32,000 bases of DNA from Alkanindiges illinoisensis DSM 15370 (GTDB taxonomy: Bacteria; Pseudomonadota; Gammaproteobacteria; Pseudomonadales; Moraxellaceae). The stretch spans positions 550,064-582,063 of the forward strand of contig NZ_JHUX01000003.1 in assembly GCF_000619845.1 (NCBI RefSeq). The letters are read 5' to 3'. Positions 1,741 through 31,178 of the stretch are shown piece by piece. Each line of letters starts with the position of its first letter. Position 1 is the stretch's first letter. A program made the position numbers and the translations under genes. The notes below the pieces were generated by a model. That model saw only the letters and a list, made by a program, of their open reading frames with translations, did not search any database and was not told where the DNA came from.

Positions 1741-3891
1741 ATGATGATTAAGAATCCACAAACAGATAATGATGCGTTTAAAAGTGAACTTGCAGGCACA
1801 GATACTACTGACCGCCAGAATAGCTCTGAAAAGAACGAGCAACTGGAACAATATAAGGCAGATGCTACCAATGAAGCCTTGCGCAGCAATCAAGGAATTA
1901 AGGTTTCAGATGACCAAAATACTTTAAAAGCGGGTGTACGTGGGCCTTCCTTGCTGGAAGATTTTTTGTTCCGTGAAAAGATGACGCATTTTGACCATGA
2001 GCGTATTCCAGAGCGTGTTGTGCATGCACGTGGTGCCGCAGCGCATGGTTATTTCCAGCCATATAAGAGCCATGCTGAATTGACCAAAGCAGCTTTTCTG
2101 CAAGATCCTAGCAAGCAAACCCCCGTATTTGTGCGTTTTTCACCTGTTCAGGGGCCGCGCGGAACATCCGATACTGTACGCGATACCCGTGGTTTTGCCG
2201 TAAAATTTTATACCGAAGAAGGTAACTATGATCTGGTAGGTAATGATATTCCAGTATTTTTTATTCAGGATGCCATCAAATTTCCAGATCTGGTCCATGC
2301 AGTAAAACCTGAACCGCATAATGAAATTCCGACAGGTCAATCCGCACATGATACGTTCTGGGATTTTATTTCTTTAACACCTGAAACTGCGCATCATGTC
2401 ACCTGGCAAATGTCTGACCGTGCAATTGCCTTAAATTACCGTACCCGTCAGGGCTTTGGGATTCATACCTTCCGGTTCATTAATGCAGAAGGCAAGGCAC
2501 GTTTTGTCAAATTCCACTTTAAGCCTTTGCAGGGTGTACTGTCTTTATTGTGGGATGAAGCACAAAAATTGGCTGGTAAAGATCCGGACTATCATCGCCG
2601 CGATTTGTGGGAATGCATTGAAGCCGGACTTTATCCAGAGTGGGAACTTGGCGTTCAGGTCATTGAAGAAGAAGATGAGCACAAGTTTGATTTTGACCTG
2701 CTGGATGCCACCAAACTTATTCCCGAAGAACTGGTGCCAGTTATTCCTTTGGGTAAAATGGTGCTTAACCGTAATCCGGAAAACTTTTTTGCTGAAACCG
2801 AGCAAGTGGCGTTTTGTCCAGCGCATATTGTGCCGGGTATTGATTTCACCAATGACCCGTTATTGCAAGGTCGCCTGTTTTCCTATACCGATACCCAGTT
2901 GCTACGATTAGGCGGACCAAACTTCCACGAAATTCCAATCAACCGTCCGGTTTGTCCATTCCATAATCATCAGCGTGATGGTTTCCATCGTCAAACCATT
3001 AACAAGGGTCGTGCATCCTATAATCCGAATTCTATTGATAATAACTGGCCACGTGAAACTCCACCAGCCGCGGCACAGGGTGGTTTTGAAACGTATCAGG
3101 AGCGGGTAGATGGTCATAAAATCCGTCAGCGCAGTCCATCATTTGGGGATCATTTCTCGCAGGCCCGCATGTTCTTTAAGAGCCTGAGCGCGCCTGAACA
3201 GCAACATGTGATTGATGCCTACAGTTTTGAGTTGGGTAAGGTGGAACGTGTATGGATTCGCGAGCGTACCGTAAATGAAATTCTAGCCAATATCGATCTG
3301 GAACTGGCCAAAAAAGTTGCAATGAATCTGGGTGTTGAACCACCTACCAAAGGCACGGTTGAGGTGCCAGAAGTAAATCTGCAACCTGCGCCATCGTTAA
3401 GCCAGATGAGCTTTTTGCCAAAAGATATTAAGGCACGAAAAATCTCGGTACTGGTGACTAATGGCGTCAATGCCGATACGGTTGAGGATATTCTGAACTG
3501 GGCATTAAAGGAAATGGCTGTAGTGAAGCTGGTTGGCCCAAGTCCGGCTCCGGTTAAAACCAGTAAGGGTGAAATGCTTAAAGTTGATGCGGCAATGGAT
3601 AGTATGCCATCCATTATGTTTGATGCTGTTGTGGTGGTAGATGGCGATGATATTGCAGCCATGCAGCAAAATGGTGAAGGCCTGCATTATTTGCTGGAAA
3701 CCTATAAGCACTTAAAGCCACTGGTACTGCTGGGTGACAATGCTCAATTGCTGGAGCAGCTACGTCTGACGCCAGATGAAGGCACACTCAGCGGAAACAG
3801 TTTTGCTGATGTGCAGGATCAGCTAAAACAGGGTCTGTTAAAACATCGTGTTTGGGCGCGTGAGCCACTGGCTAAAATGGTTCCAGCCTGA
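1741..3891 (+). CDS. katE: Large-subunit monofunctional catalase (HPII type)
   Basis: 716-aa ORF with the catalase core ([37 protein letters not shown]) plus the C-terminal flavodoxin-like extension that defines HPII-size catalases. Confidence 0.95.
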
Positions 3892-3906
3892 TTTATTGAG
3901 TGTGGC

Positions 3907-3938
3907 AAAAAAACCAGTCTAATTTAGGCTGGTTTTTT
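3907..3938. terminator. Bidirectional terminator between convergent katE and lpxH
   Basis: aaaaaaaccagtcta att taggctggtttttt: imperfect stem flanked by an A-run and a T-run. Confidence 0.6.
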
Positions 3939-3979
3939 GTGAATGCGGTTTGTTAATTAATTGTTAGTTAGAAACTGGT

Positions 3980-4729
3980 CTAAAACTTCCATTCAATTAG
4001 TTGTAAGCCTTGTTCATTAAGCAGGGCAATCATGGCGCTACCATTGGTTGAATCTGTTGTCGAATCTGTAGTTTCTGATTCACGCCAGTCACCCAGCACC
4101 ACACGTTTTTTGCCATTGCTGTATTCATGGACAGCAGAACGATGTGTATGTCCATGCAGTAAAATATCATGATTGCTGAGAACAGCTTTTACTGTCTGTT
4201 CATTGACATCCATCACATAAGCAGACTTGCGCTGATGGCTACTTTTGCTTCTTTGCCGTGTTTTTTTTGCAACCTTGCGTCGTGTGGTTAGGGGTAGTCT
4301 AAGAAGTGTATTCACAATTATTGGATGGCGGATTATTTTTTTATAACGCTGATAGGAGCGATCATCGGTACACAGGGCATCACCATGTTCAAGTATGATA
4401 CGCTGGCCTGCATTCTCAATAGTAATACGTTCTTTATTGATTAACTGGCCACCAAAGCGGCTCATGAATTGCTGGCCCAGAGTAAAATCACGGTTGCCAT
4501 GCATAAAAAAAATCCGGTTACCATGCGCTGTAAATACCTGCAAAGCATGAACAATGTCATCCAGCCACTGCGAATGATCATCATCGCCCAGCCAGGCTTC
4601 AAACCAGTCGCCCAGAATATAAAGCTGATCAATGCTAACTTGATAGTGAGCCAGTAAATCTAAAAACCCCCGCACAAGGCGAGGGTGATTAGGTGACAAA
4701 TGTAAATCAGCAATAAACAGTTGTTGCAC
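3980..4729 (-). CDS. lpxH: UDP-2,3-diacylglucosamine diphosphatase
   Basis: 249-aa ORF with a GTG start. Calcineurin-like metallophosphoesterase motifs match LpxH in sequence and order (IADLHLS, GDWFEAW, HGNRDF, LLHGHTH). It lies downstream of a cyclophilin gene, as in the E. coli ppiB-lpxH arrangement. Confidence 0.9.
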   Translation of the reverse strand: MQQLFIADLHLSPNHPRLVRGFLDLLAHYQVSIDQLYILGDWFEAWLGDDDHSQWLDDIVHALQVFTAHGNRIFFMHGNRDFTLGQQFMSRFGGQLINKERITIENAGQRIILEHGDALCTDDRSYQRYKKIIRHPIIVNTLLRLPLTTRRKVAKKTRQRSKSSHQRKSAYVMDVNEQTVKAVLSNHDILLHGHTHRSAVHEYSNGKKRVVLGDWRESETTDSTTDSTNGSAMIALLNEQGLQLIEWKF

Positions 4730-5489: not shown

Positions 5490-7211
5490 GTGATCCATAT
5501 GAAGCCAAATGATGCTGCCACTGCGATGCCTGACTTGACCCCAACCTCTTCCAACGCACCACAACAGCAGCAAGCACAGGCCGGTCTGGATTTCATTCGC
5601 CAGATTATTGCAGATGACCTGGCCAGTGGCAAACACAGCCAGATTGTGTCACGTTTTCCACCAGAACCCAATGGCTACCTGCACCTGGGTCATGTGAAGT
5701 CCATTTGCCTGAATTTTGGCGTGGCGATTGAAAACAATGGCCTATGTAACCTGCGTCTTGATGACACCAACCCTTCTGCTGAAAAACAGGAATATGTCGA
5801 CAATATTAAAAATGACATTCACTGGCTGGGTTTTAACTGGAATGGTGACATACGCTATGCCTCCAGTTATTTTGACCAGCTGTATCAATGGGCACTGCAA
5901 CTAATCCAGCAGGGTGATGCCTATGTTGACCTGCAAACTCCGGAGCAAATCAAGCTGAACCGTGGCAGTTTTACTGAAGCAGGCACCAATTCGCCCAATC
6001 GTGATCAAACCGTTGAGGAAAACCTCAAGCTATTTGAACAAATGCGTGCGGGTGAATTTAACGAAGGTGCTGCTGTATTGCGTGCCAAAATTGATATGGC
6101 CAGCCCCAATGTCCACCTGCGTGACCCGGTACTATATCGCGTGCTGAAGGCACACCATCACCAAACTGGCGACAAATGGTGCATTTATCCCATGTATGAT
6201 TATGCGCATCCGTTGTCTGATGCAATTGAAGGTATTACCCATTCGCTGTGTACGCTGGAATTTGAAGACCATCGTCCCTTTTATGACTGGATTATTTCTA
6301 AGGTAGACACTCAGGCCAAACCGCGCCAGATTGAGTTTTCACGCCTGAATGTGGATTACACCTTAACCAGTAAACGCAAGCTGAAAAAACTGGTAGATGA
6401 TGGCGTGGTACAAGGCTGGGATGATCCGCGTATGCCAACCATTGCCGGGATGCGCCGTCGGGGCTTTACTGCTGAAGGCTTAAGGGATTTTTGCCAGCGT
6501 ACCGGCGTATCCAAGGCGGATGGCGTAGTAGATATTGGACTGCTGGAATTCTGTATTCGCCAGTCACTGGAAAATACTGCACCGCGTGCCATGGCCGTGT
6601 TAAACCCGCTTAAGGTCACACTCACCAACCTGCCACAAAGCATGACATTGCAGCATTCACGTCATCCCAATGTGGATATGGGCGAACGTGATATTCCTTT
6701 ATCCTCTGTGATTTATATTGATAAAAATGACTTTGCCGAAGTACCACCGAAAGGCTTTAAACGTTTAATCCCTGATGGTGAAGTGCGCTTGCGCCATGCC
6801 TATGTGATTAAATGCAATGAAGTGATCAAGGATGCAAACGGCGAAGTGGTTGAGCTAAAGTGCAGCATTGACCCGGATACACTAGGCAAGAACCCAGAAG
6901 GCCGCAAGGTCAAAGGTGTGATTCACTGGGTAGACAGTGCGCAAGGTGTGCCTGCCGAAGTGCGTATTTATGAGCGCCTGTTTAGCAATCCTAATCCGGA
7001 AGCTGGCGATGATTTTATGCAAAACCTCAATCCTGAATCGGTCAAAGTGCTACAGGCAGTGATTGAGCCGTCTCTTGCACAAGCCAAAGCGGGTGACCGT
7101 TTCCAGTTTGAGCGTGAAGGCTATTTTGTGGCAGATGAAAAAGACTTCACTACGGATAAACCCGTGTTTAACCGGATTCTGGATTTAAGAGATAGTTATA
7201 AGCCAGCTTGA
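5490..7211 (+). CDS. glnS: Glutamine--tRNA ligase
   Basis: 573-aa ORF with a class I HIGH motif (PNGYLHLGH), an MSK-like loop (LTSKRKL) and the GlnRS-type C-terminal beta-barrel region. The start is either GTG 5490 or ATG 5499. Confidence 0.95.
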
Positions 7212-7217
7212 TAAGTT

Positions 7218-7256
7218 AGTGCCTTTTAATTAGTGAAATTATAAGGCACTATTTTT
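7218..7256 (+). terminator. Rho-independent terminator after glnS
   Basis: agtgcctt (7218..7225) pairs with aaggcact (7243..7250), followed by attttt. Confidence 0.6.
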
Positions 7257-7266
7257 GGTAATTATA

Positions 7267-7911
7267 ATGAAAAATGATGATAGATATAAATTTGTTAGAG
7301 ATATTCAAGAGCATTCTAATAGTAAGTTAACTTTTATTATTAGAAATCCAAATCTTTATAATCCTAGGAGTTATAATGTAGGGAAAATTCTTGCTCTTAC
7401 AATTTTAATAATATTATTTACTGTGCAGTTGGTTATTGCATTTTTAATTGATAATTTTGCTTTGAATATCTCATTTATGATTGGGTTAACTCTTTTATAT
7501 TTGTATTATTCTGATTTAGAAAAAACTGTATATATTTGCTTGCTACAATCAAAGGATAGAAGTCAATTAGAATACATTGAAACAATCAATAATAAATCTA
7601 TTATTTTAAATTATCCTATAAAAATTAGAGTGATATATAGATATTATCCAATTCCTAAAGCAGGAAAAATTATTAGAATTGTTGTAGAAATAGTCGGTCA
7701 GAGTACAAATGATATAGTGCGCCTCGGTGAAATTAAAAGTGAACATTTTTTAAGAGTAGCTTCCGTGCCTTATACATCAACACAGGATGCTTATCAAGCA
7801 TTTGATAAAATCTATAATAGTTATAAATTTTTAGAGAAATGGTTAGAAATTCCATTAGTTAAAGAAGAAATTCTATTATTTAAAGATAGCAGTAGACCCG
7901 CTATCTTTTAA
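7267..7911 (+). CDS. Hypothetical two-pass membrane protein encoded on a very AT-rich insert
   Basis: ORF of about 214 aa from ATG 7267; the track's TTG at 7255 is less likely. Two hydrophobic segments (ILALTILIILFTVQLVIAFLI, ISFMIGLTLLYLYY) are followed by a soluble domain of about 130 aa. No family recognised and no obvious SD. Confidence 0.6.
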   Translation: MKNDDRYKFVRDIQEHSNSKLTFIIRNPNLYNPRSYNVGKILALTILIILFTVQLVIAFLIDNFALNISFMIGLTLLYLYYSDLEKTVYICLLQSKDRSQLEYIETINNKSIILNYPIKIRVIYRYYPIPKAGKIIRIVVEIVGQSTNDIVRLGEIKSEHFLRVASVPYTSTQDAYQAFDKIYNSYKFLEKWLEIPLVKEEILLFKDSSRPAIF

Positions 7912-7922
7912 GGAATTTAAAT

Positions 7923-8540
7923 TTGGATCCATTACTGAAATACCGTGAACAGCATAAAAAACGCCTGAGTTATATGCCTTGGCTATACTGGCGTTTAAAA
8001 CCCAAACACAGGGAATGGGCGCAAGCATGGCAGCAGGAGTATCAGGACTATCTGCAAAGCATGGAAAGCGTGCAGATTGGCAAGGACTGTTTTATTTCAC
8101 CGGATGCGCAGTTATTTGCCGAACCCAATCGCGACATTATTATTGGTGATGGCAGCTTTATTGCAGCCGATTGTGTGCTACATGGCCCCATTACACTGGG
8201 CAAACAAGTGGCCTTAAATCATCATTGTACGCTGGACGGTGGGCGCAAAGGAATTCATATCAGCAATAATGCGAGGCTGGCAGCTTATTGTCATCTCTAT
8301 GCGTTTAATCATGGCATGAAAATCGACAGTACCATTCATGAGCAGGCTGTGACTTCAAGTGGGATTTACATTGGTGAGGATGTCTGGCTAGGGGCCAATG
8401 TAGGGGTGGTTGATGGTGTCAAAATTGATGACTTTGCAGTGATCGGCATGGACAGCACTGTCACGCGCCATGTAGAAGCTTATGCCATTATGGCCGGAAG
8501 TCCTGCCAAAAAAATCGGTGATCGGCGCGACAAGAAATAA
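7923..8540 (+). CDS. Hexapeptide-repeat (left-handed beta-helix) acyl/acetyltransferase
   Basis: 205-aa ORF with a TTG start after aagga. It has repeating [LIV]-G-x-x-x-x hexapeptide turns (IIIGDGSFIAADCVL, IYIGEDVWLGANVGVVDGVKIDDFAVIGMDSTV), as in the LbH acetyltransferase superfamily. Confidence 0.8.
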   Translation: MDPLLKYREQHKKRLSYMPWLYWRLKPKHREWAQAWQQEYQDYLQSMESVQIGKDCFISPDAQLFAEPNRDIIIGDGSFIAADCVLHGPITLGKQVALNHHCTLDGGRKGIHISNNARLAAYCHLYAFNHGMKIDSTIHEQAVTSSGIYIGEDVWLGANVGVVDGVKIDDFAVIGMDSTVTRHVEAYAIMAGSPAKKIGDRRDKK

Positions 8541-24289: not shown

Positions 24290-24313
24290 TTGTTTGCAGG
24301 TTTTGCCATATTG

Positions 24314-25195
24314 ATGGAAGGTAGACTCGGGCAATACTACTTAATCAGGCCATTGCGGGCACAGGCAGCTCATCTGAATTTTGCACGGTCACAGCTTTAT
24401 CTGGCGCAAGCAACAGATGATCAATCATTATACATAATAAAATTCCTATCTGTAACAGCAGGCCAGATTGAGCAGGAATTATTTCTCAACGAAGTTCGGG
24501 TCTTGAGTGAGTTAGGAAAACTAAATTCATCATACTGGTTGCCATTATTGAAAAGTGGGCAAGAAGTATTATGTTTAAAATCATCCAGCACGCGGCCTGA
24601 ATTAGTGCGTTATTTGGTTTTGCCCTATATAGAACAAGGTAATATCAGGGATTTTCTGAGTAGCCAGATTTGCACTTTACCACAGGCAGAACAATTATGG
24701 CTGGGCATGCTGGATGCAGTGGTTGCATTGCACAAAAACGGCTGGTTGCATCTGGATTTAAAGCCTTCTAATTTTCTGCTTAACGCGCCTTCTGATGTGT
24801 ATTTGATTGATCTTGCATTTGCTCAACCTTACATTAAATCTCAAGTATCCAATGTTGCTACGAAAGCAATGGATGCAATCAGAGGCACACCACGTTATAT
24901 GAGTCCAGAGCAGTTTCTGGGACAGCAATTGACAGCACAAACTGACTTTTACAGCCTTGGCTTGATTCTTTATGAACTATTGATGCGAAAAAGTTTGTAT
25001 CATGCAAATGATTATCAAAGTTGGGCTATGCAACACTGTCAGCAACCTGTGCCATTGCTACCTGAAAATTTGGCCAGTTTTCAAATGCTCATAGATGGGT
25101 TACTGGCTAAGAATAGGCATAATCGCCTGAACGAAGTTACTGAAATCCGGCAACTGGCCCAGCAGGCTTTTCAGGGTGTTCATCATCACCTATAG
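24314..25195 (+). CDS. Hanks-type Ser/Thr protein kinase, atypical (no Gly-rich loop)
   Basis: Catalytic loop HLDLKPSNFLL, DLA in place of DFG (YLIDLAFA), activation/P+1 segment GTPRYMSPEQ, candidate VAIK lysine in LYIIKFL. The frame is open from TTG 24290, directly abutting the patatin stop; ATG 24314 is chosen here. Confidence 0.8.
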   Translation: MEGRLGQYYLIRPLRAQAAHLNFARSQLYLAQATDDQSLYIIKFLSVTAGQIEQELFLNEVRVLSELGKLNSSYWLPLLKSGQEVLCLKSSSTRPELVRYLVLPYIEQGNIRDFLSSQICTLPQAEQLWLGMLDAVVALHKNGWLHLDLKPSNFLLNAPSDVYLIDLAFAQPYIKSQVSNVATKAMDAIRGTPRYMSPEQFLGQQLTAQTDFYSLGLILYELLMRKSLYHANDYQSWAMQHCQQPVPLLPENLASFQMLIDGLLAKNRHNRLNEVTEIRQLAQQAFQGVHHHL

Positions 25196-25805: not shown

Positions 25806-25890
25806 GGGGGCGTGGCGGAATTGGTAGACGCACTGGATTTAGGTTCCAGCGCCGCAAGGTGTAAGAGTTCGAGTCTCTTCGCCCCCACCA
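25806..25890 (+). tRNA. tRNA-Leu (anticodon UAG)
   Basis: Hand-folded cloverleaf. Acceptor gggggcg/cgccccc, D-arm gcg-gaattggtaga-cgc, anticodon stem ctgga/tccag with loop ttTAGgt, long variable arm (class II tRNA), T-arm aagag-ttcgagt-ctctt, discriminator A and encoded CCA. Very close to E. coli leuW as I recall it. Confidence 0.95.
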
Positions 25891-25906: not shown

Positions 25907-27115
25907 TCAATTACTTAGTCTGAGCTTACCCCCTGTGGGCACGTTTTGGGCACGTTTCTCTAATTTTGCAATCTCCTCTTTATTTTTGTCACTGTTAATC
26001 CAGCGCGCGTATCTTTTCATCAGCATGACCAGACTATGGCCAAGCTGATCAGCGACATATACCGGATTTAAGCCACTCATCAAGCAAACCGTCGCATAAG
26101 TATGCCTTGTGTTATATGACGGCCTGTAGCGCAAGCCTGTGGCTTTAATCGCAGCTTTAAAATGCTTATATAAAGATTTCTGCGTGTTGTAGTTTTCATT
26201 AGTCTCAGCACAAATAAACACATGGTCATATTTGAGATAACTTAATTGCTTGAGTTGCTGGAATGCTTCAAAAGCCGTTTGGTTTAAATCAACAAACCGG
26301 TCTTTATTGGTCTTTGTGCTGTCCTGCTGCACACCATTCACCCGACCCTTATTGATGTAGATTTGCCGATTCACAAAATCCACATCCTGCCAGGTGAGGG
26401 CAATCAGTTCTGAAGGCCGGCAACCAGTCCAGAACGCCACAGTAAAATAAAGATAAACCACTGGCCGCTCAGTAATACACTGGCTCTTTAACCATTGAAG
26501 CAACAAGTCACGTTCACCAGCAGTGAAAGGATCGGGGAGTTCCTGATTGTTCTTCTGGTTCTTTAAGCGTTCAGCCGGGTTCTTATCAATTACCTCATCA
26601 TCAGCAGCCAGCTCGAACACCCCACGTAACGGAATTAGGGCATCATTCCTGACCTTGGCCGATGACCACTCACGGCCATTAACTGCATTACGCAGCATCT
26701 GGCTGCTAATGTCATCTATCGGCATTTCTGCTAGTAGCGGCATCCAGATCCGCTCCAGGATGGACAGGTATTTTTCCTTGGTTCCCTGTTTATGGTTAGT
26801 CAGGTTAAATAGGTACTGCTGGGCATAGTAGGCAAATGTCGGAACACTGGTCGGAGAGGTGATGTTTGGATCTTCCTGGCCATTTTCAAATGGCCGGCCA
26901 GTGACTTCCTCAATATCAGCATGCGTTAAAATATCAAACTCTATTTTCTTGATTAGCTCTTGTCTAATCTTAGCTGCCTTGGTGAAGTTAGTATGGGTGT
27001 CCTTGAGTGGAAGGACGATCCACTGGCGTTTGCCGTTCCATGTAAAGTTAATCTGGATTTTTCCATTTTTTGCTCTTGTGCCGCGCGGTAGCTCTGAGCC
27101 TTCTGCATTACCCAC
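25907..27115 (-). CDS. int: Tyrosine recombinase / phage integrase with N-terminal arm-binding domain
   Basis: 402-aa ORF with a GTG start. N-terminus LPRGTRAKNGKIQINFTWNGKR is arm-DNA-binding (DUF3596-like). Catalytic residues are present (GCRPSEL Arg, TRHTYAT His-x-x-Arg context, LGHS His, KRYARW Tyr). Confidence 0.95.
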   Translation of the reverse strand: MGNAEGSELPRGTRAKNGKIQINFTWNGKRQWIVLPLKDTHTNFTKAAKIRQELIKKIEFDILTHADIEEVTGRPFENGQEDPNITSPTSVPTFAYYAQQYLFNLTNHKQGTKEKYLSILERIWMPLLAEMPIDDISSQMLRNAVNGREWSSAKVRNDALIPLRGVFELAADDEVIDKNPAERLKNQKNNQELPDPFTAGERDLLLQWLKSQCITERPVVYLYFTVAFWTGCRPSELIALTWQDVDFVNRQIYINKGRVNGVQQDSTKTNKDRFVDLNQTAFEAFQQLKQLSYLKYDHVFICAETNENYNTQKSLYKHFKAAIKATGLRYRPSYNTRHTYATVCLMSGLNPVYVADQLGHSLVMLMKRYARWINSDKNKEEIAKLEKRAQNVPTGGKLRLSN

Positions 27116-27285
27116 TTGTTATAACCCTTAATTGAATAGCTGAATTTGCGTTCTGAAAGTTGGACCCACACAAGGCCCTCATCCCACAATGGACGTAGAT
27201 TTTTTAGATTGGTAGGTAACTCACCCGTGAGTTCACAAAACCGTTCGGCTGTTACCCAGTCAACAGCATCAACTATTATAGTCAT
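26953..27285 (-). CDS. xis: Excisionase-like protein
   Basis: 110-aa ORF. The first ~60 aa (DWVTAERFCELTGELPTNLKNLRPLWDEGLVWVQLSERKFSYSIKGYNKWV) follow the excisionase-like winged-helix pattern. The last ~54 codons overlap int in another frame. Confidence 0.65.
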   Translation of the reverse strand: MTIIVDAVDWVTAERFCELTGELPTNLKNLRPLWDEGLVWVQLSERKFSYSIKGYNKWVMQKAQSYRAAQEQKMEKSRLTLHGTANASGSSFHSRTPILTSPRQLRLDKS

Positions 27286-27454: not shown

Positions 27455-27496
27455 TTACTTCCTATGTAGGATGCCCGTCAAAGCAGGGCGGTTGGG

Positions 27497-27823
27497 TTAA
27501 ATTCGGCGTTGATTCGCCTGCCGGGTAGTATTGATTGAATAGCCTTTAGCCTTGGCACGACGGATTGAACGGCCAGCAATGTCACGGAAATCGTTATATT
27601 TGCCTTGCAGCACATCCTTAATATTGTATTTAGGCTGTATGCATTCAGCGTCAGTCATGGCAACCCAGCTGGCGTCTACTTTCTTAAAAACCGTTTGGGT
27701 TTGAACATCGAGGCGGTAAGGCTTACCGGCAATGTGACCGGAAATGCCTTCACCTGGCTTATAAGTGCCGAACACCCAGAACGGGGTCGGATATATTTTG
27801 GGAGCGGTGGCGCGGGCGTTCAT
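27497..27823 (-). CDS. Hypothetical phage protein (108 aa)
   Basis: ORF from the track. Its ATG overlaps the stop of the upstream 44-aa ORF (TAATG). The C-terminus is basic. No family recognised. Confidence 0.7.
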   Translation of the reverse strand: MNARATAPKIYPTPFWVFGTYKPGEGISGHIAGKPYRLDVQTQTVFKKVDASWVAMTDAECIQPKYNIKDVLQGKYNDFRDIAGRSIRRAKAKGYSINTTRQANQRRI

Positions 27824-27957
27824 TAGAAGAAGCCCCAGTTGTGCAGGCCATAGCCGATGGTAAATAGCAACGTACCCAGGCCACCAGCAAAAATTTTGGC
27901 ATCGTTAGCAAATGAACTAACATCCGTCGCTTGCAATTCCTGCGTTTTGTTATGCAT
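27823..27957 (-). CDS. Small membrane peptide (44 aa), first ORF of the leftward early operon
   Basis: Below the track's size cut-off and translated by hand: MHNKTQELQATDVSSFANDAKIFAGGLGTLLFTIGYGLHNWGFF. It has a strong SD (aggag, plus-strand 27970..27974), one C-terminal hydrophobic helix, and a TAA overlapping the next ATG. Confidence 0.5.
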   Translation of the reverse strand: MHNKTQELQATDVSSFANDAKIFAGGLGTLLFTIGYGLHNWGFF

Positions 27958-27996
27958 AATCTTCTTACTCCTAATACCCCAAAAGTTAGGTGTCAT

Positions 27997-28032
27997 GCCT
28001 CCGGTTGCTTCGACTCAACGCGGGGGCTTTTT
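27997..28032 (+). terminator. Intrinsic-terminator-like hairpin on the + strand, inside the leader of the leftward operon
   Basis: gcctccg (27997..28003) pairs with cggGggc (28021..28027) with one G.U pair, a 17-nt loop, then TTTTT (28028..28032). No + strand gene lies upstream. Confidence 0.4.
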
Positions 28033-28060
28033 ATTGCCTGTGTTTTGGCTTGATAAATCT

Positions 28061-28089
28061 ATTATTAGGCATACCTAAATAAAAGTAAA
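28061..28089 (-). promoter_or_regulatory. Candidate leftward early promoter (PL-like)
   Basis: On the minus strand: TTTACT (28089..28084), 17-nt spacer, AATAAT (28066..28061). The context tgcctAATAAT.gattt is shared with the rightward promoter at 30328..30345. Confidence 0.45.
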
Positions 28090-28102
28090 TAGGTTTACCT
28101 AA
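28065..28102. promoter_or_regulatory. Two repressor-operator-like palindromes (OL-like)
   Basis: TTAGGcataCCTAA (28065..28078, perfect) and ATAGGtttaCCTAA (28089..28102), centres 24 bp apart. They overlap the -10 and -35 of the PL candidate. Confidence 0.55.
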
Positions 28103-28173
28103 TATTTCTCATGAATTTCTGCTATATTAAAAAAAGAAACCCGGCACATGGCCGAGTAGAAAAGAGGTGGTTT

Positions 28174-28668
28174 ATGCAATTTGAAGATTTTGAGCAGACT
28201 GAAAAGCATATGCAGAAAAATAAATATGATGGGATCTCGATGCGTCATATATCTAATGAACAGATTGTTTCATTTGAGGCAAAAACGCGTCAGCAAATTG
28301 CACAGGCTTTTATGACTAGTGGTATTAGTCAACCAAAAACATTGGCTTATTTAATAGATCAGTTCTTTGAATTAATTCAATCAGGCACAAGTAGTGTAAA
28401 TAGAAATCTAATTGATTTTACTGAAAATTCTTATAAATTACCTGAAATTAGAAGTAAATTTCGGCAAGAAAATAGACTGCGTTTACTTATCGAATTCCTT
28501 TCGTCTGGAGTAAGGAATATAGCTTACCTGGGTTATGTAGTAACGCGGTTTGACCACTTAATTGCAACAGGTGAGGATAGTTTTCCAGAAACTCCTGAAC
28601 TCCTACAGCTCTTGCCCGATCATAAGGTACACCCATGTAATGAACATGAATGGTTTTGTGTGGATTAA
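28174..28668 (+). CDS. Hypothetical protein (164 aa from ATG 28174; frame open from 28111)
   Basis: Strong SD gagg (28164..28167) 6 nt before ATG 28174. AT-rich, no family recognised. The 3' 182 nt overlap the convergent ORF 28487..28882, so one of the two ends is uncertain. Confidence 0.5.
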   Translation: MQFEDFEQTEKHMQKNKYDGISMRHISNEQIVSFEAKTRQQIAQAFMTSGISQPKTLAYLIDQFFELIQSGTSSVNRNLIDFTENSYKLPEIRSKFRQENRLRLLIEFLSSGVRNIAYLGYVVTRFDHLIATGEDSFPETPELLQLLPDHKVHPCNEHEWFCVD

Positions 28669-28882
28669 GGTTTAAATCTATTAAATATTCAATCAATGGA
28701 TTTAGATCACCTGCTAAATCTTCACTTTGGCCAAATGCCAAGGGAATATAATGATCAGGTTTTTCACTATCCAGCCTAGCTAATACAAACATGCCTATAG
28801 AACCTTCTGTGATGACATGATTGGTAGGAAGAATATTGTAGAAGCGTCCATTCCATTGCGATTGGGCTATAAGTGGTTTCAT
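28487..28882 (-). CDS. Hypothetical protein (131 aa from ATG 28882; frame open to 28975)
   Basis: MKPLIAQSQWNGRFYNILPTNHVITEGSIGMFVLARLDSEKPDHYIPLAFGQSEDLAGDL... reads like a real protein. No family recognised and the RBS is weak. Confidence 0.55.
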   Translation of the reverse strand: MKPLIAQSQWNGRFYNILPTNHVITEGSIGMFVLARLDSEKPDHYIPLAFGQSEDLAGDLNPLIEYLIDLNLNPHKTIHVHYMGVPYDRARAVGVQEFLENYPHLLQLSGQTALLHNPGKLYSLLQTKGIR

Positions 28883-28898
28883 AAGCAAAATTCCGAGG

Positions 28899-29150
28899 TT
28901 GATTTTGAAACATAAAAAGAAGTGTAACTGTAAACATGCACGACAATTAAGGCATTTGAAGCAGATAAGCCGCAATAGTGCCGAGCTTTACCATAATCTG
29001 CAAAAATCACTGGAACAATCTATAGCTAAAACCACTGCCGAATTGAGTGCATCAATCCAGAATTTTCAAGCGATGACAAAAGCGGAACGGCGGGTATCAC
29101 TTGAAACAGCAATTAATGATTTGCAAGAACGTATAAAAAGTAAAAGCTAG
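28899..29150 (+). CDS. Hypothetical basic/coiled-coil-like protein (81-83 aa, TTG start)
   Basis: An 83-codon open frame in AT-rich DNA with no competing long ORF on the other strand across 28976..29150. No in-frame ATG near the 5' end. TTG 28905 lies 6 nt after gagg (28895..28898). Confidence 0.45.
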   Translation: MILKHKKKCNCKHARQLRHLKQISRNSAELYHNLQKSLEQSIAKTTAELSASIQNFQAMTKAERRVSLETAINDLQERIKSKS

Positions 29151-29183
29151 TCATTTGATAACCTTGAGTTTTTATATAAAATA

Positions 29184-29483
29184 TTAGGTATGATACTTTT
29201 CCAAAAAATCATCAATCCAGCTTTGAGCTTGCCCAAGATTGCTGATATCGGCCAGCTTCAAATTAGTGCCTTCTGCTTCATTATACCCTTCGATTATTGC
29301 TTCAAAAATATTGGCTTCATTGACAACTTCTCGGGCAAACTCAGCAGCGTCATAGCTCTGCTTTGCTTTTTTTAGTGATGCAATTTGCTTGTCAATACCA
29401 TCGCCAATTTTAGCGAGTGCTGCTTTAAAGTCTTGTTTATTAATACTTAGCGCCGTTTTGGTTTTGTTGAGTGTTGCAATCAT
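29184..29483 (-). CDS. Hypothetical helical protein (99 aa) encoded directly downstream of cI
   Basis: ATG 20 nt after the cI stop, preceded by aaggaaa. Same strand as cI, so probably co-transcribed in the lysogen. No family recognised. Confidence 0.7.
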   Translation of the reverse strand: MIATLNKTKTALSINKQDFKAALAKIGDGIDKQIASLKKAKQSYDAAEFAREVVNEANIFEAIIEGYNEAEGTNLKLADISNLGQAQSWIDDFLEKYHT

Positions 29484-29503
29484 TGTTACGTTTCCTTTTT
29501 AAT

Positions 29504-30241
29504 TTAATCAAAATCATTAAACCGCCCCACTACCTTGCCTACTAATCGGCAATGTTCATTAACTGGCATTAGCCTGGGTTGCCAGTTTGGATTTAAAGGC
29601 CGTAAGTAATAATTACCATCTTCAACAACCAGTTCTTTAAAGGTTGCTTTTTCGTCGCCATCACAAGCCATAATGACCAGATCACCTGTATGCAGTTCAT
29701 CAATCTGGAAAGTGGGATTCACATAAATACGGTCATCAGGCATGAATTTTGGTTCCATGGACACGCCATCAACAATAAGCGCAAAGCCGTATTTACCAGC
29801 CTTGGGATTATAGGGAATCCATTCAATCACACGAGATAAATCACCAGACAGAACCTCAGTGTAATCGCCAGCAGAAACCCATGAAATCACAGGGGTTTGT
29901 TTGGATGGTGGCAAGCCATCATGTCTTACAGGTAAATCCCGGATGTCCTGCTGCTGTGGCATACCTAGTGACTGGCTTTGTGACTGACCAGATTGGAATT
30001 GATGCTGGGTTTGGGAGGGGCGCATTTCGCCAGTACCACTAGCCAGCCATAAAGCATTTACACCTAAGCACGTAGCAGCCTTTAAAAGATTTTCACCTTC
30101 CATTGTTTTTGACTTTCCGCTTAGCCAGTCACTTACTGATGGGGGTTTGACCCCTACACAGCGTGCCAGCTCAACACCCTTCATTTTTTTAGGAGTTGCT
30201 TCTTCCATCGCAAGTTTAAGGCGCTCAGCTAACGTTTTCAT
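29504..30241 (-). CDS. cI: CI-like prophage repressor (N-terminal HTH, C-terminal S24 LexA-type autopeptidase)
   Basis: 245-aa ORF with an HTH region (GVELARCVGVKPPSVSDWLSGKS), a Gln/Ser-rich linker, an Ala-Gly cleavage context (WVSAGDY), the Ser nucleophile in DGVSMEP and Lys in LVGKVVG. Confidence 0.92.
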   Translation of the reverse strand: MKTLAERLKLAMEEATPKKMKGVELARCVGVKPPSVSDWLSGKSKTMEGENLLKAATCLGVNALWLASGTGEMRPSQTQHQFQSGQSQSQSLGMPQQQDIRDLPVRHDGLPPSKQTPVISWVSAGDYTEVLSGDLSRVIEWIPYNPKAGKYGFALIVDGVSMEPKFMPDDRIYVNPTFQIDELHTGDLVIMACDGDEKATFKELVVEDGNYYLRPLNPNWQPRLMPVNEHCRLVGKVVGRFNDFD

Positions 30242-30271
30242 AAGAAAAAGACAAATTATCGATTACAACTG

Positions 30272-30334
30272 TTAGGAAATCCTAACATAAATAAAATTAG
30301 GAATGCCTATTGATTATTTATAAGGATTGCCTAA
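30272..30334. promoter_or_regulatory. Three repressor-operator-like palindromes (OR-like) between cI and cro
   Basis: TTAGGaaatCCTAA (30272..30285, perfect), TTAGGaatgCCTAT (30297..30310) and TAAGGattgCCTAA (30321..30334). Centre spacings are 25 and 24 bp. Confidence 0.6.
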
Positions 30335-30338
30335 TAAT
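30310..30338 (+). promoter_or_regulatory. Candidate rightward early promoter (PR-like)
   Basis: TTGATT (30310..30315), 17-nt spacer, AATAAT (30333..30338). It lies upstream of the cro SD aggag (30351..30355). Confidence 0.5.
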
Positions 30339-30362
30339 TGATTTATTGTTAGGAGATGCAAG

Positions 30363-30638
30363 ATGACAGATGACCAACTCATTAATGCATTGGGTGGCTG
30401 TACTGCTGTAGCCAATTTTTTAGGAATTAAGCCTCCGTCTGTAAGTGGATGGAACTCAATTCCTTTGGATAAAAAAATTTTGCTAGCAGTAATTGCGGAA
30501 GATCATGGCATTTGCACCCGCAAAGAACTTTTTCCCGATTCTTATCAGAATATTTGGATTGAATTACGTCCTGAATTTAACACTGCTTCCAGTCGAAAAA
30601 CCAAGTTAGCCACCTCTGTAAATGAACGTATTTCCTGA
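30363..30638 (+). CDS. cro: Cro-like HTH regulator (YdaS family pattern)
   Basis: 91-aa ORF divergent from cI. LGGCTAVANFLGIKPPSVSGW ... ELFPD parallels E. coli YdaS (GGQSAMARLLGVSPPSVNQW ... ELRPD) as I recall it. Confidence 0.8.
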   Translation: MTDDQLINALGGCTAVANFLGIKPPSVSGWNSIPLDKKILLAVIAEDHGICTRKELFPDSYQNIWIELRPEFNTASSRKTKLATSVNERIS

Positions 30639-30707: not shown

Positions 30708-31178
30708 ATGAGAGACATATTTTTAGCCCTACAGCATATCGCTCAATCCTACGGAATTCGTCAGATTGCTGAATATCTGGGCACCAAGCCTGAGGGCCTG
30801 CGTAAAAAACTAAATCCTAATGACGATTCGCATCAGGTCACGCTGGCTGAGTTTCTACACATTAGTAGTATTACAGGCAAGCCAGATGCGTTATTGGCCA
30901 TCGCTGCTGAGCTGGGCTATGTATGTATTAAGGCTCATAAGGCAACTAATGAAACCAGCATGGCGCAGATGTGCTTCTTGACCATGATGCTTGAACTTGG
31001 TCAGTCCAAAGGTGATTTAAGCGGAGCGATCAAGTCAGGCATGAGTGACAACCGAATCTGCATGAGGGATGCCCGTGACATCAAAGCGGCTGTCTATGAA
31101 ATGCAGTGTGACCTTGCTCAGATTGAGCAAGCCATTGATGAGTGCTTTAACAATGAAAAACAAGGAAGCCGAAAATGA
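30708..31178 (+). CDS. Phage CII-type regulatory protein (CP76-like pattern)
   Basis: 156-aa ORF in the cII position. The segment EGLRKKLNPNDDSHQVTLAEFLHISSITG resembles the LRNKLNP...H.FT..E motif of the CP76/YdaT-like family. Confidence 0.7.
   Translation: MRDIFLALQHIAQSYGIRQIAEYLGTKPEGLRKKLNPNDDSHQVTLAEFLHISSITGKPDALLAIAAELGYVCIKAHKATNETSMAQMCFLTMMLELGQSKGDLSGAIKSGMSDNRICMRDARDIKAAVYEMQCDLAQIEQAIDECFNNEKQGSRK

Follow-up and report, generated by a model that had tools for sequence, protein, structure and literature searches.

In phage lambda, the rexA and rexB genes lie between the repressor gene cI and the leftward operator and promoter (OL and PL), on the same strand as cI and in a unit that ends at the terminator t_imm; they are dispensable and expressed from the prophage. 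Other temperate phages and satellites carry defence genes at hotspots between conserved flanks, as in P2 and P4 or, next to the repressor gene, in the case of BstA from Salmonella phage BTP1. Here we describe the interval in rex position of a lambdoid Moraxellaceae prophage, found in a window of 32,000 nucleotides (nt; the whole stretch of DNA that was analysed, in which all positions are counted) from Alkanindiges illinoisensis, a relative of Acinetobacter. The interval between OL and cI (28103-29503) is a swappable accessory slot with two conserved edges. On the cI side, the edge is a small gene, ORF4 (29184-29483, - strand); on the OL side, it is a short cassette that reads as a transcription terminator on the cI strand and as a promoter-like element and leader on the other. 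Between them lie two convergent open reading frames (ORFs), ORF1 (28174-28668, + strand) and ORF2 (28487-28882, - strand), whose last 60 codons occupy the same 182 base pairs (bp) of DNA (28487-28668), both strands of which are coding. Repressor-adjacent prophage cargo is a known kind of arrangement. For two features of the present case, the terminator/promoter-leader bracket and the conserved 60-codon antiparallel dual-coding overlap, we found no earlier description; to our knowledge, a conserved antiparallel overlap of 180-190 bp with both frames apparently constrained is rare in bacteria and phages.

The likeness to lambda rexAB lies in the position of the slot, in the placement of ORF4 and ORF2 on the cI strand and in a terminator directly before OL. 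In contrast to lambda, the window proteins are much smaller, and ORF1 stands on the opposite strand behind a promoter-like cassette of its own, overlapping ORF2 by 182 bp. No similarity of ORF1, ORF2 or ORF4 to RexA or RexB was detected in Pfam-A at E <= 1. A first-pass annotation made from the sequence alone had drawn the layout correctly: its four ORFs are all present (ORF1 has a longer alternative start at 28111), as are the convergent overlap and the placement of OL and PL; ORF2 and ORF3, said to start about 17-23 bp apart, do so at 16-22 nt; the 99-residue ORF4 begins 20 nt after the cI stop codon; and the block is AT-rich, with a GC content of 36.3% against 44.9% for cI, 45.4% for the integrase gene and 44.6% for the whole window.

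The evidence for a swappable slot comes from relatives that share one part of the locus and differ in the next. We compared the window with the best 80 of 179 relatives of ORF4 in IMG/VR, all from Acinetobacter prophages (L001-L080), and with further loci, among them a 2.9-kb Logan contig (L081), the isolated and sequenced Acinetobacter phages R3177 (L082, NC_041866) and AM106 (L083), two more Logan contigs (L084 and L085) and an ENA metagenome scaffold (L086). Behind ORF4, the 80 loci hold about 35 unrelated content groups, none of which resembles the content of the window, and the length of the slot in relatives ranges from 51 to 4774 nt, its content being varied or absent among phages with shared flanks. 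In L084, the early-left operon and its leader match those of the window (87.5% identity to 27482-28035), and the immunity region consists of cI, a terminator and operators only, with no cargo at all. In L086 (994-1165), cI and cro are 95% identical to those of the window, cI at the DNA level, up to a recombination junction 21 nt before the cI stop codon, past which the sequence is unrelated and a different gene starts where the window has ORF4. Finally, in L081 the ORF1/ORF2 pair follows a different 74-residue gene of family phrog_2719 and a repressor unrelated to that of the window (33% identity, confined to the helix-turn-helix (HTH) domain). The earlier proposal of swappable cargo in rex position is thus borne out by the OL-cI interval of related prophages.

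The proposal that the four ORFs form one self-contained module is not, since ORF4 is distributed independently, ORF3 is unsupported and only ORF1 and ORF2 travel together. ORF4, described earlier as belonging to no known family together with the other three, matches phrog_15679 over residues 1-98 of its 99 (E = 8.2e-57) and is clearly a gene. The best 80 of its 179 IMG/VR relatives are 80-90% identical to it, and in 62 of these 80 loci the homolog sits directly behind a repressor that is only 23-77% identical to the window cI. Homologs also occur in the isolated phages R3177 and AM106, and in L088 an ORF4 homolog stands in tandem with a phrog_2719 gene. Since ORF4 is found behind unlike repressors with unlike neighbours, and the pair is found in L081 without ORF4, ORF4 and the pair are, judged from these loci, independent modules. 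By the same comparison, ORF4 is a widely conserved, independently distributed anchor gene that marks the left edge of a hypervariable slot. A weak PADLOC hit links ORF4 to the Menshen protein NsnC (E = 1.3e-3, 16 bits), and L068 has a strong match to NsnA at 3510-4559 (2.7e-54); the likeness between ORF4 and NsnC is probably a coincidence.

The other edge is defined by the cassette. On the cI strand of the window, a terminator scan and folding placed an intrinsic, t_imm-like terminator of the cI-strand transcript at 28129-28157 (- strand), with a hairpin from 28157 to 28139 (ACTCGGC-CATGT-GCCGGGT) followed by a T-run from 28138 to 28129; its folding energy is -10 kcal/mol (z = -2.15). Read on the + strand, the same hairpin forms the 5' stem-loop of the ORF1 leader. 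This double reading recurs among the relatives, in which the cassette reads as AACCCACC...GGTGGGTT TTCTTTTGTCT on the cI strand, an intrinsic terminator, and on the opposite strand as TG(T/C)TTTAAT-AGACAAAAGAAAA, the hairpin, GGAGTTT(A/G)TT, 2-5 nt and ATG. Of 78 loci, 72 contain its 22-nt motif, TTTAATAGACAAAAGAAAACCC, always in the same orientation and at a distance of 51-4774 nt from ORF4. Of the seven base pairs of the hairpin, four show compensatory double changes across 17 variants, the window and L081 among them. In all 18 loci with a recognisable early-left gene, the terminator lies 118-213 nt upstream of the first such gene, regardless of the size of the cargo.

Among 33 distinct variants of the cassette, about 21 are followed by an opposite-strand ORF of 59-196 residues. 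The ORFs fall into several families unrelated to one another. Purifying selection is seen in three, with ratios of nonsynonymous to synonymous substitution (dN/dS) of 0.10-0.14 for two and 0.28-0.37 for the third; those of the cassette-linked ORFs that were scanned gave no significant Pfam or PHROGs match. Families without annotation include those that begin MIGIT... (102-120 residues), MSNKSKK... (79 residues), MSLSNSQK... (71 residues) and MSKKKFRAELY... (70 residues). The cassette is kept even where no ORF follows, as in L015, L061 and L009. It is also present in R3177 (L082 5568-5589) and AM106 (L083 2369-2390), within an unannotated gap before the early-left genes, and neither region has an annotated opposite-strand gene. 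The window cassette (28120-28176) is a diverged version, colinear with L081, which has an almost identical cassette in front of its ORF1 homolog, and with the Acinetobacter prophages: it consists of TGCTATATT, an A-run, the hairpin at 28139-28157, AGAGGTGG and the ATG. The extended -10-like TGCTATATT (28120-28128, + strand) is the colinear counterpart of the conserved TG(T/C)TTTAAT and a predicted promoter for ORF1, and AGAGGTGG (28163-28170, + strand), which ends 3 nt before the ATG at the place of the cassette GGAG, is its Shine-Dalgarno site.

The cassette adjoins a set of repressor operators. We scanned the whole window for the palindrome TTAGGN4CCTAA, allowing up to one mismatch, and five of the six matches sit at OL or at the rightward operator (OR); chance alone would give 0.83 matches. 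OL1 (TTAGGCATACCTAA, 28065-28078) is exact and OL2 (ATAGGTTTACCTAA, 28089-28102) has one mismatch; the same operator scan placed the three operators of OR between cI and cro (30272-30334). A consensus scan found a PL-like promoter (TTTACT, 17-nt spacer, AATAAT; 28061-28089, - strand) that overlaps OL1 and OL2 and points into the early-left operon. Several immunity types (L007, L008, L059, L002 and L030) have a third copy of the operator, which overlaps the conserved hexamer of the cassette or stops 8-10 nt short of it; this suggests that the cassette promoter may be under repressor control.

Many contents of the slot in relatives match known or candidate families of defence or toxin-antitoxin genes. 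Among the large cargo proteins sampled, six of ten match defence models. L002 encodes a PD-Lambda-2_C/Beta protein (9e-54) and a 'cll' protein (2e-26) in a Gop-beta-cII-like arrangement, with Beta on the cI strand and 'cll' on the opposite strand, started from the cassette, the two genes being convergent with a 41-nt overlap. L064 has an AAA_21 ATPase resembling AriA, PtuA and GajA (OLD/PARIS-like), L068 the Menshen protein NsnA mentioned above followed by a HEPN protein, L067 a PDC-S42 protein (1.5e-83), L073 an Hp1 protein (3e-47) and L009 a protein with a SocA/Panacea antitoxin domain. For the window itself, the first-pass annotation had proposed a defence or toxin-antitoxin (TA) function. 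The part of this idea that stands is the location, given that the slot holds defence and TA genes in relatives; the proteins of the block themselves match no such family in Pfam, PHROGs, PADLOC or NCBIfam.

ORF1 and ORF2 are an exceedingly rare pair, and both are real genes, as is ORF4. ORF1 (164 residues, WP_156935687.1) runs opposite to the cI strand behind the cassette adjoining OL, and ORF2 (131 residues) lies on the cI strand upstream of the terminator. Each has a single homolog, P0004 for ORF1 (57% identical) and P0002 for ORF2 (60% identical), which are encoded side by side on L081. Outside the overlap, ORF1 shows a dN of 0.40 and a dS of 2.7 (dN/dS 0.15), and ORF2 a dN of 0.35 with dS saturated. 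In a Markov model trained on the long ORFs of the window, in which real genes score 0.147 on average and spurious ORFs -0.15, ORF1 scores 0.133 and ORF2 0.101. A word-index protein search with ORF1 and ORF2, repeated with an ORF1 profile, recovered only the proteins themselves and their one homolog each; HMMER with an ORF2 profile against 1.84 billion representative proteins found only P0002; and no further copy of the pair appeared in scans of genome_contigs, metagenome_contigs (including a degenerate FDHLIATGED pattern) and viral_contigs, or by tblastn against 50,697 phage records. We rejected a longer ORF1 of 185 residues (ATG at 28111), whose start would precede both the hairpin and the Shine-Dalgarno site; a start at 28174 or later is supported by RefSeq and by the homolog. 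We likewise rejected a longer ORF2 of 162 residues (TTG at 28975), as its homolog begins with the ATG that corresponds to 28882 and the added part would be antisense to ORF3.

Homology and structure searches placed ORF4 in phrog_15679 and left ORF1 and ORF2 as orphans. Scans of Pfam-A (E <= 1), PHROGs, PADLOC-DB 2.0 and NCBIfam assigned ORF1, ORF2 and their two homologs to no family; the best PADLOC hit of ORF1 was PglX (E = 0.027), ORF2 had none, and sequence searches of the PDB returned nothing below E = 0.1. The AlphaFold2 (AF2) model of ORF1 is poor, with a per-residue confidence (pLDDT) of 42, and predicts an all-helical protein. That of ORF2 is better (pLDDT 76.9; global confidence, pTM, 0.75) and shows an N-terminal hairpin, a beta-beta-alpha-beta-alpha core and C-terminal helices. 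Many acidic, histidine and arginine residues are invariant between the two ORF2 homologs, suggesting that ORF2 is probably an enzyme. The predicted core topology is reminiscent of GIY-YIG nucleases, and by eye a G-[MV]-[FY] ... Y-x-P-L-A-[FY]-G-x-S-E-D-L pattern and a conserved glutamate in the second helix can be aligned with them, although this alignment puts Asp59 at the position of the catalytic arginine. Foldseek against BFVD returned phage homing and GIY-YIG endonucleases as weak matches (E = 0.04-0.6; template modelling (TM) score 0.3-0.48). Membership of that family is therefore a lead and is not demonstrable for ORF2: Pfam gave no hit (E <= 1), and hhalign gave a probability of 0.1-0.2% against manually entered N-terminal sequences of I-TevI and UvrC.

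The overlap is the feature for which the comparison with L081 is most informative. There it is retained at 191 bp with both frames open. The phase is such that position 1 of each ORF1 codon lies opposite position 1 of an ORF2 codon, and the wobble position of each gene opposite the second position of the other. Between the window and L081, the DNA has diverged by 25% in the overlap and by about 40% outside it; dS falls to 0.67 for ORF1 and 0.25 for ORF2, and dN is as low as in the unique parts or lower. Identical ORF2 residues are encoded by the same codon in 27 of 33 cases within the overlap and in 12 of 39 outside (p = 1.6e-5). We then fixed the sequences of one protein and redrew its synonymous codons at the background codon-retention rate. 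Given ORF1, the ORF2 frame would be expected to keep 21.7 +/- 3.4 identical residues and keeps 34 of 59 (P = 6e-4); given ORF2, the ORF1 frame would be expected to keep 16.3 +/- 3.1 and keeps 38 of 56 (P < 2e-4). When conditioned on ORF1, the ORF2 frame remains free of stops with a probability of 8%. The nearly invariant ORF2 segment HYMGVPxDRARA lies opposite a loose ORF1 tail, the invariant ORF1 segment TRFDHLIATGEDSF lies opposite a looser stretch of ORF2, and the ORF2 fold is modelled best in the part that the overlap encodes. Each frame thus appears to be constrained beyond what the other imposes, as measured on one sequence pair with a simple null model. Together with the loci described above, these data establish the anatomy of the interval, its modularity and its dual-coding overlap.

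Based on this arrangement, we tentatively propose, as the reading that we favour, that ORF2 is an exclusion or defence effector of the lysogenic phase and ORF1 its early, repressor-controlled partner, the two being expressed in mutually exclusive states. In the lysogen, the cI transcript would run through ORF4 and ORF2 and end at the hairpin at 28139-28157; the terminator scan and folding found no convincing terminator between cI and this hairpin on the cI strand. The position of ORF4 and ORF2 on the cI strand upstream of the terminator makes their expression in the lysogen plausible. That transcript would be antisense to all of ORF1. Upon loss of the repressor, PL and the adjacent rightward promoter would fire, and ORF1 would be made early after induction or infection; its transcript would run antisense to the last 182 nt of ORF2 and perhaps further. 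ORF1 might act as a self-immunity factor, a regulator or a counter-factor, and antisense transcription could sharpen the switch. Since ORF1 lies on the opposite strand behind a promoter-like cassette that adjoins the operators, an early, repressor-controlled gene is likelier than one expressed in the lysogen. The idea that the whole block is expressed from the prophage is therefore plausible for ORF4 and ORF2 and probably does not extend to ORF1. The promoter, its control by the repressor, the timing of expression and any role in defence are what we infer from the arrangement of the sequence.

Several observations weigh against this proposal. The distance from the end of OL2 to the hexamer is 20 nt in the window, compared with 8-10 nt in several other immunity types, making the step of repressor control weaker here, and the conserved hexamer, TTTAAT, departs from the usual A at position 2; the ORF1 promoter and its control are predicted at the level of a consensus. 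No protein of the block matches defence, TA, abortive infection (Abi) or superinfection exclusion (Sie) families in Pfam, PHROGs, PADLOC or NCBIfam, and the ORF2 model has no significant structural neighbour by Foldseek, with none in the PDB and weak ones only in BFVD. Location is a weak argument when applied to one gene at a time, as such slots also carry morons unrelated to defence. The pair is known from two instances, so that the selection tests come down to one pairwise comparison. Finally, ORF1 and ORF2 could be functionally independent and simply packed tightly together. A more ambitious form of the proposal, in which the pair would be a strand-split defence system of a new kind, with ORF2 as a lysogen-expressed effector enzyme, ORF1 as its early self-immunity partner and the 60-codon overlap as an antisense lock, and the bracket a two-sided hotspot of Acinetobacter-type prophages with defence on the lysogenic strand and matching early genes for self-immunity, regulation or counter-defence on the repressor-controlled opposite one, is in our view unlikely.

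The functional independence of the two genes is the basis of the alternative that fares best, although we regard it as rather doubtful. Here, ORF1 and ORF2 would be unrelated cargo, ORF2 a lysogen-expressed moron, whether for defence or not, and ORF1 an early gene driven by the cassette, for instance one for counter-defence or host takeover, and the overlap would result from compaction. The cassette drives many unrelated opposite-strand genes beside many different cI-strand cargos, so that the contents of the two strands can assort independently, and an immediate-early position is typical of anti-defence genes. Yet the pair has been inherited together, at 57-60% identity, behind unrelated repressors and different post-cI genes, its 60-codon overlap has been kept with both frames constrained, and a known multi-gene system, Beta and cll, is split across the strands in the same way in L002.

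It is also conceivable, if quite improbable, that the pair belongs to the lysis-lysogeny circuitry of the phage itself. After induction, antisense transcription through ORF2, ORF4 and cI would then shut down the immunity transcript, with ORF1 as an antirepressor-like protein or modulator of the switch and ORF2 as a maintenance factor. The promoter-like element does face the cI operon, the scan found no + strand terminator between ORF1 and cI, and conservation of the cassette where no ORF follows (in the three loci named above) means that the transcript itself may matter. However, the genes are dispensable for this type of phage, given that L084 has the same early-left operon without cargo and most relatives carry other genes, and Pfam detects no signature of an HTH or of an antirepressor (KilAC, Ant or Bro) in either of them.

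An addiction module that stabilises the prophage, in which one protein would be a toxin neutralised by the other or by an antisense RNA, seems to us very unlikely. The pair is a small, AT-rich and mobile two-gene module, its antisense overlap is reminiscent of RNA-controlled TA systems, and L009 holds its SocA/Panacea antitoxin-domain gene in the same slot. Against this, neither protein matches a toxin or antitoxin family in Pfam, NCBIfam or PADLOC, the genes are convergent rather than co-directional, both proteins are large for a type I toxin, and the extreme rarity of the pair is unlike typical TA families. The convergent orientation and the lack of a TA domain in those three libraries also set the pair apart from type II modules.

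An annotation artefact, in which the overlap or one of the ORFs would be spurious and 28487-28668 would hold a single functional frame, is hardly credible. In its favour, substitutions by codon position within the overlap fit ORF1 better, with 10 differences at the second position of ORF1 codons (the third of ORF2 codons), RefSeq names ORF1 and lists no accession for ORF2, and in about 8% of simulations chance alone keeps the ORF2 frame open. Against it, both unique N-terminal parts are under purifying selection and so both genes must read through to their stops, both frames exceed the resampling expectation, HYMGVPxDRARA of ORF2 shows stronger conservation than the stretch of ORF1 opposite to it, and the overlap-encoded part of the ORF2 fold is the one modelled best.

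ORF3 (28899-29150, + strand) is an open frame of 83 residues in the 300-bp spacer between ORF4 and ORF2, with a TTG start or an alternative TTG at 28905 after GAGG, 16-22 nt from the ORF2 start at 28882. No homolog was found by tblastn, pattern scan or exact look-up, PADLOC gave no hit, and the Pfam, PHROGs and NCBIfam scans likewise assigned it to no family; its product, taken from either start with methionine as first residue, is missing from a collection of 15 billion proteins. The spacer has no blastn or tblastx match in the 80 related loci, and ORF3 has no counterpart in L081, where the ORF2 homolog begins 33 nt after the preceding gene. With a coding score of -0.020, which falls between those of spurious and real ORFs, it is probably spurious, though it might be a further gene that shares the strand of ORF1.

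The prophage is integrated beside a tRNA-Leu gene (25806-25890). Its integrase gene (int, 25907-27115) is followed by an excisionase-like gene of phrog_9668 (26953-27285) and small leftward genes that extend to 27954/27996. The repressor gene cI (29504-30241, - strand), at the head of the lysogenic transcript, encodes an HTH and a Peptidase_S24 domain (1.1e-19), and beyond OR lie cro (30363-30638, P22_Cro-like) and cII (30708-31178, CP76-like). The block homologous to L084 (27482-28035) starts right downstream of the PL-like promoter. The first PL gene (27823-27954, - strand) encodes a 44-residue protein (WP_265596960.1) with the hydrophobic C-terminus FAGGLGTLLFTIGYGLHNWGFF, which is conserved in L084 and L085, both with a different repressor and both cargo-free. 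A terminator-like hairpin and T-run (CTTCGACTCAACGCGGGG GCTTTTTATT; 28008-28035, + strand) lies in the PL leader on the strand opposite to PL, in the part of the block kept in L084 at 87.5% identity, and might be a stop for antisense read-through into the immunity region. The best promoter-like match of the region (TTGATA, 16-nt spacer, TAAAAT, 10 of 12 positions; 29155-29182, + strand) faces right, towards the 3' end of ORF4, in antisense orientation to both this gene and cI, and may be due to chance in AT-rich DNA. An Rfam scan of 27700-30500 returned only a chance fragment of a snoRNA. Outside the prophage, upstream of the tRNA-Leu gene, a 301-residue ORF (24290-25195, + strand) has the catalytic motif HLDLKPSNFLL, as in serine/threonine protein kinases, and window positions 7001-8000, with a GC content of 0.28-0.32 against a window mean of 0.446, may be another horizontally acquired island.

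If the proposal holds, the ORF4 homolog and the 22-nt cassette motif would offer a handle for mining defence genes, and possibly counter-defence or self-immunity genes, from prophages of the Acinetobacter group, and such bracket-based mining would bear on A. baumannii phage therapy. The bracket is present in the isolated phages R3177 and AM106, which are possible experimental models of the slot. A single short element that terminates transcription on one strand and acts as promoter and leader on the other would couple cargo expression compactly to the lysis-lysogeny state, and the overlap would lend itself well to the study of how antiparallel overlaps arise and persist.

Compared with the P2/P4 and BstA hotspots, the slot shares the principle of conserved flanks around highly variable cargo that includes defence genes. 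It differs in the nature of the flanks, phrog_15679 and a terminator/promoter-leader cassette, and in being used on both strands; the word 'repressor' does not occur in the text of one paper on Acinetobacter defence hotspots. The closest arrangement within the slot is the Gop-beta-cII/PD-Lambda-2-like system of L002, which likewise has one gene per strand, with a partner started from the cassette and a convergent overlap. ORF1 and ORF2 have no similarity to the L002 proteins, and their overlap is four to five times longer and conserved as dual-coding DNA. Control by convergent antisense transcription is known from the excludons of Listeria, the sar RNA of P22 and the oop RNA of lambda. As in excludons, the predicted transcripts of the window are fully complementary, here over ORF1 and the 3' part of ORF2, and would make expression of the two genes mutually exclusive. 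In the window, where this complementarity follows from predicted promoter and terminator positions, both strands of the overlap also encode protein.

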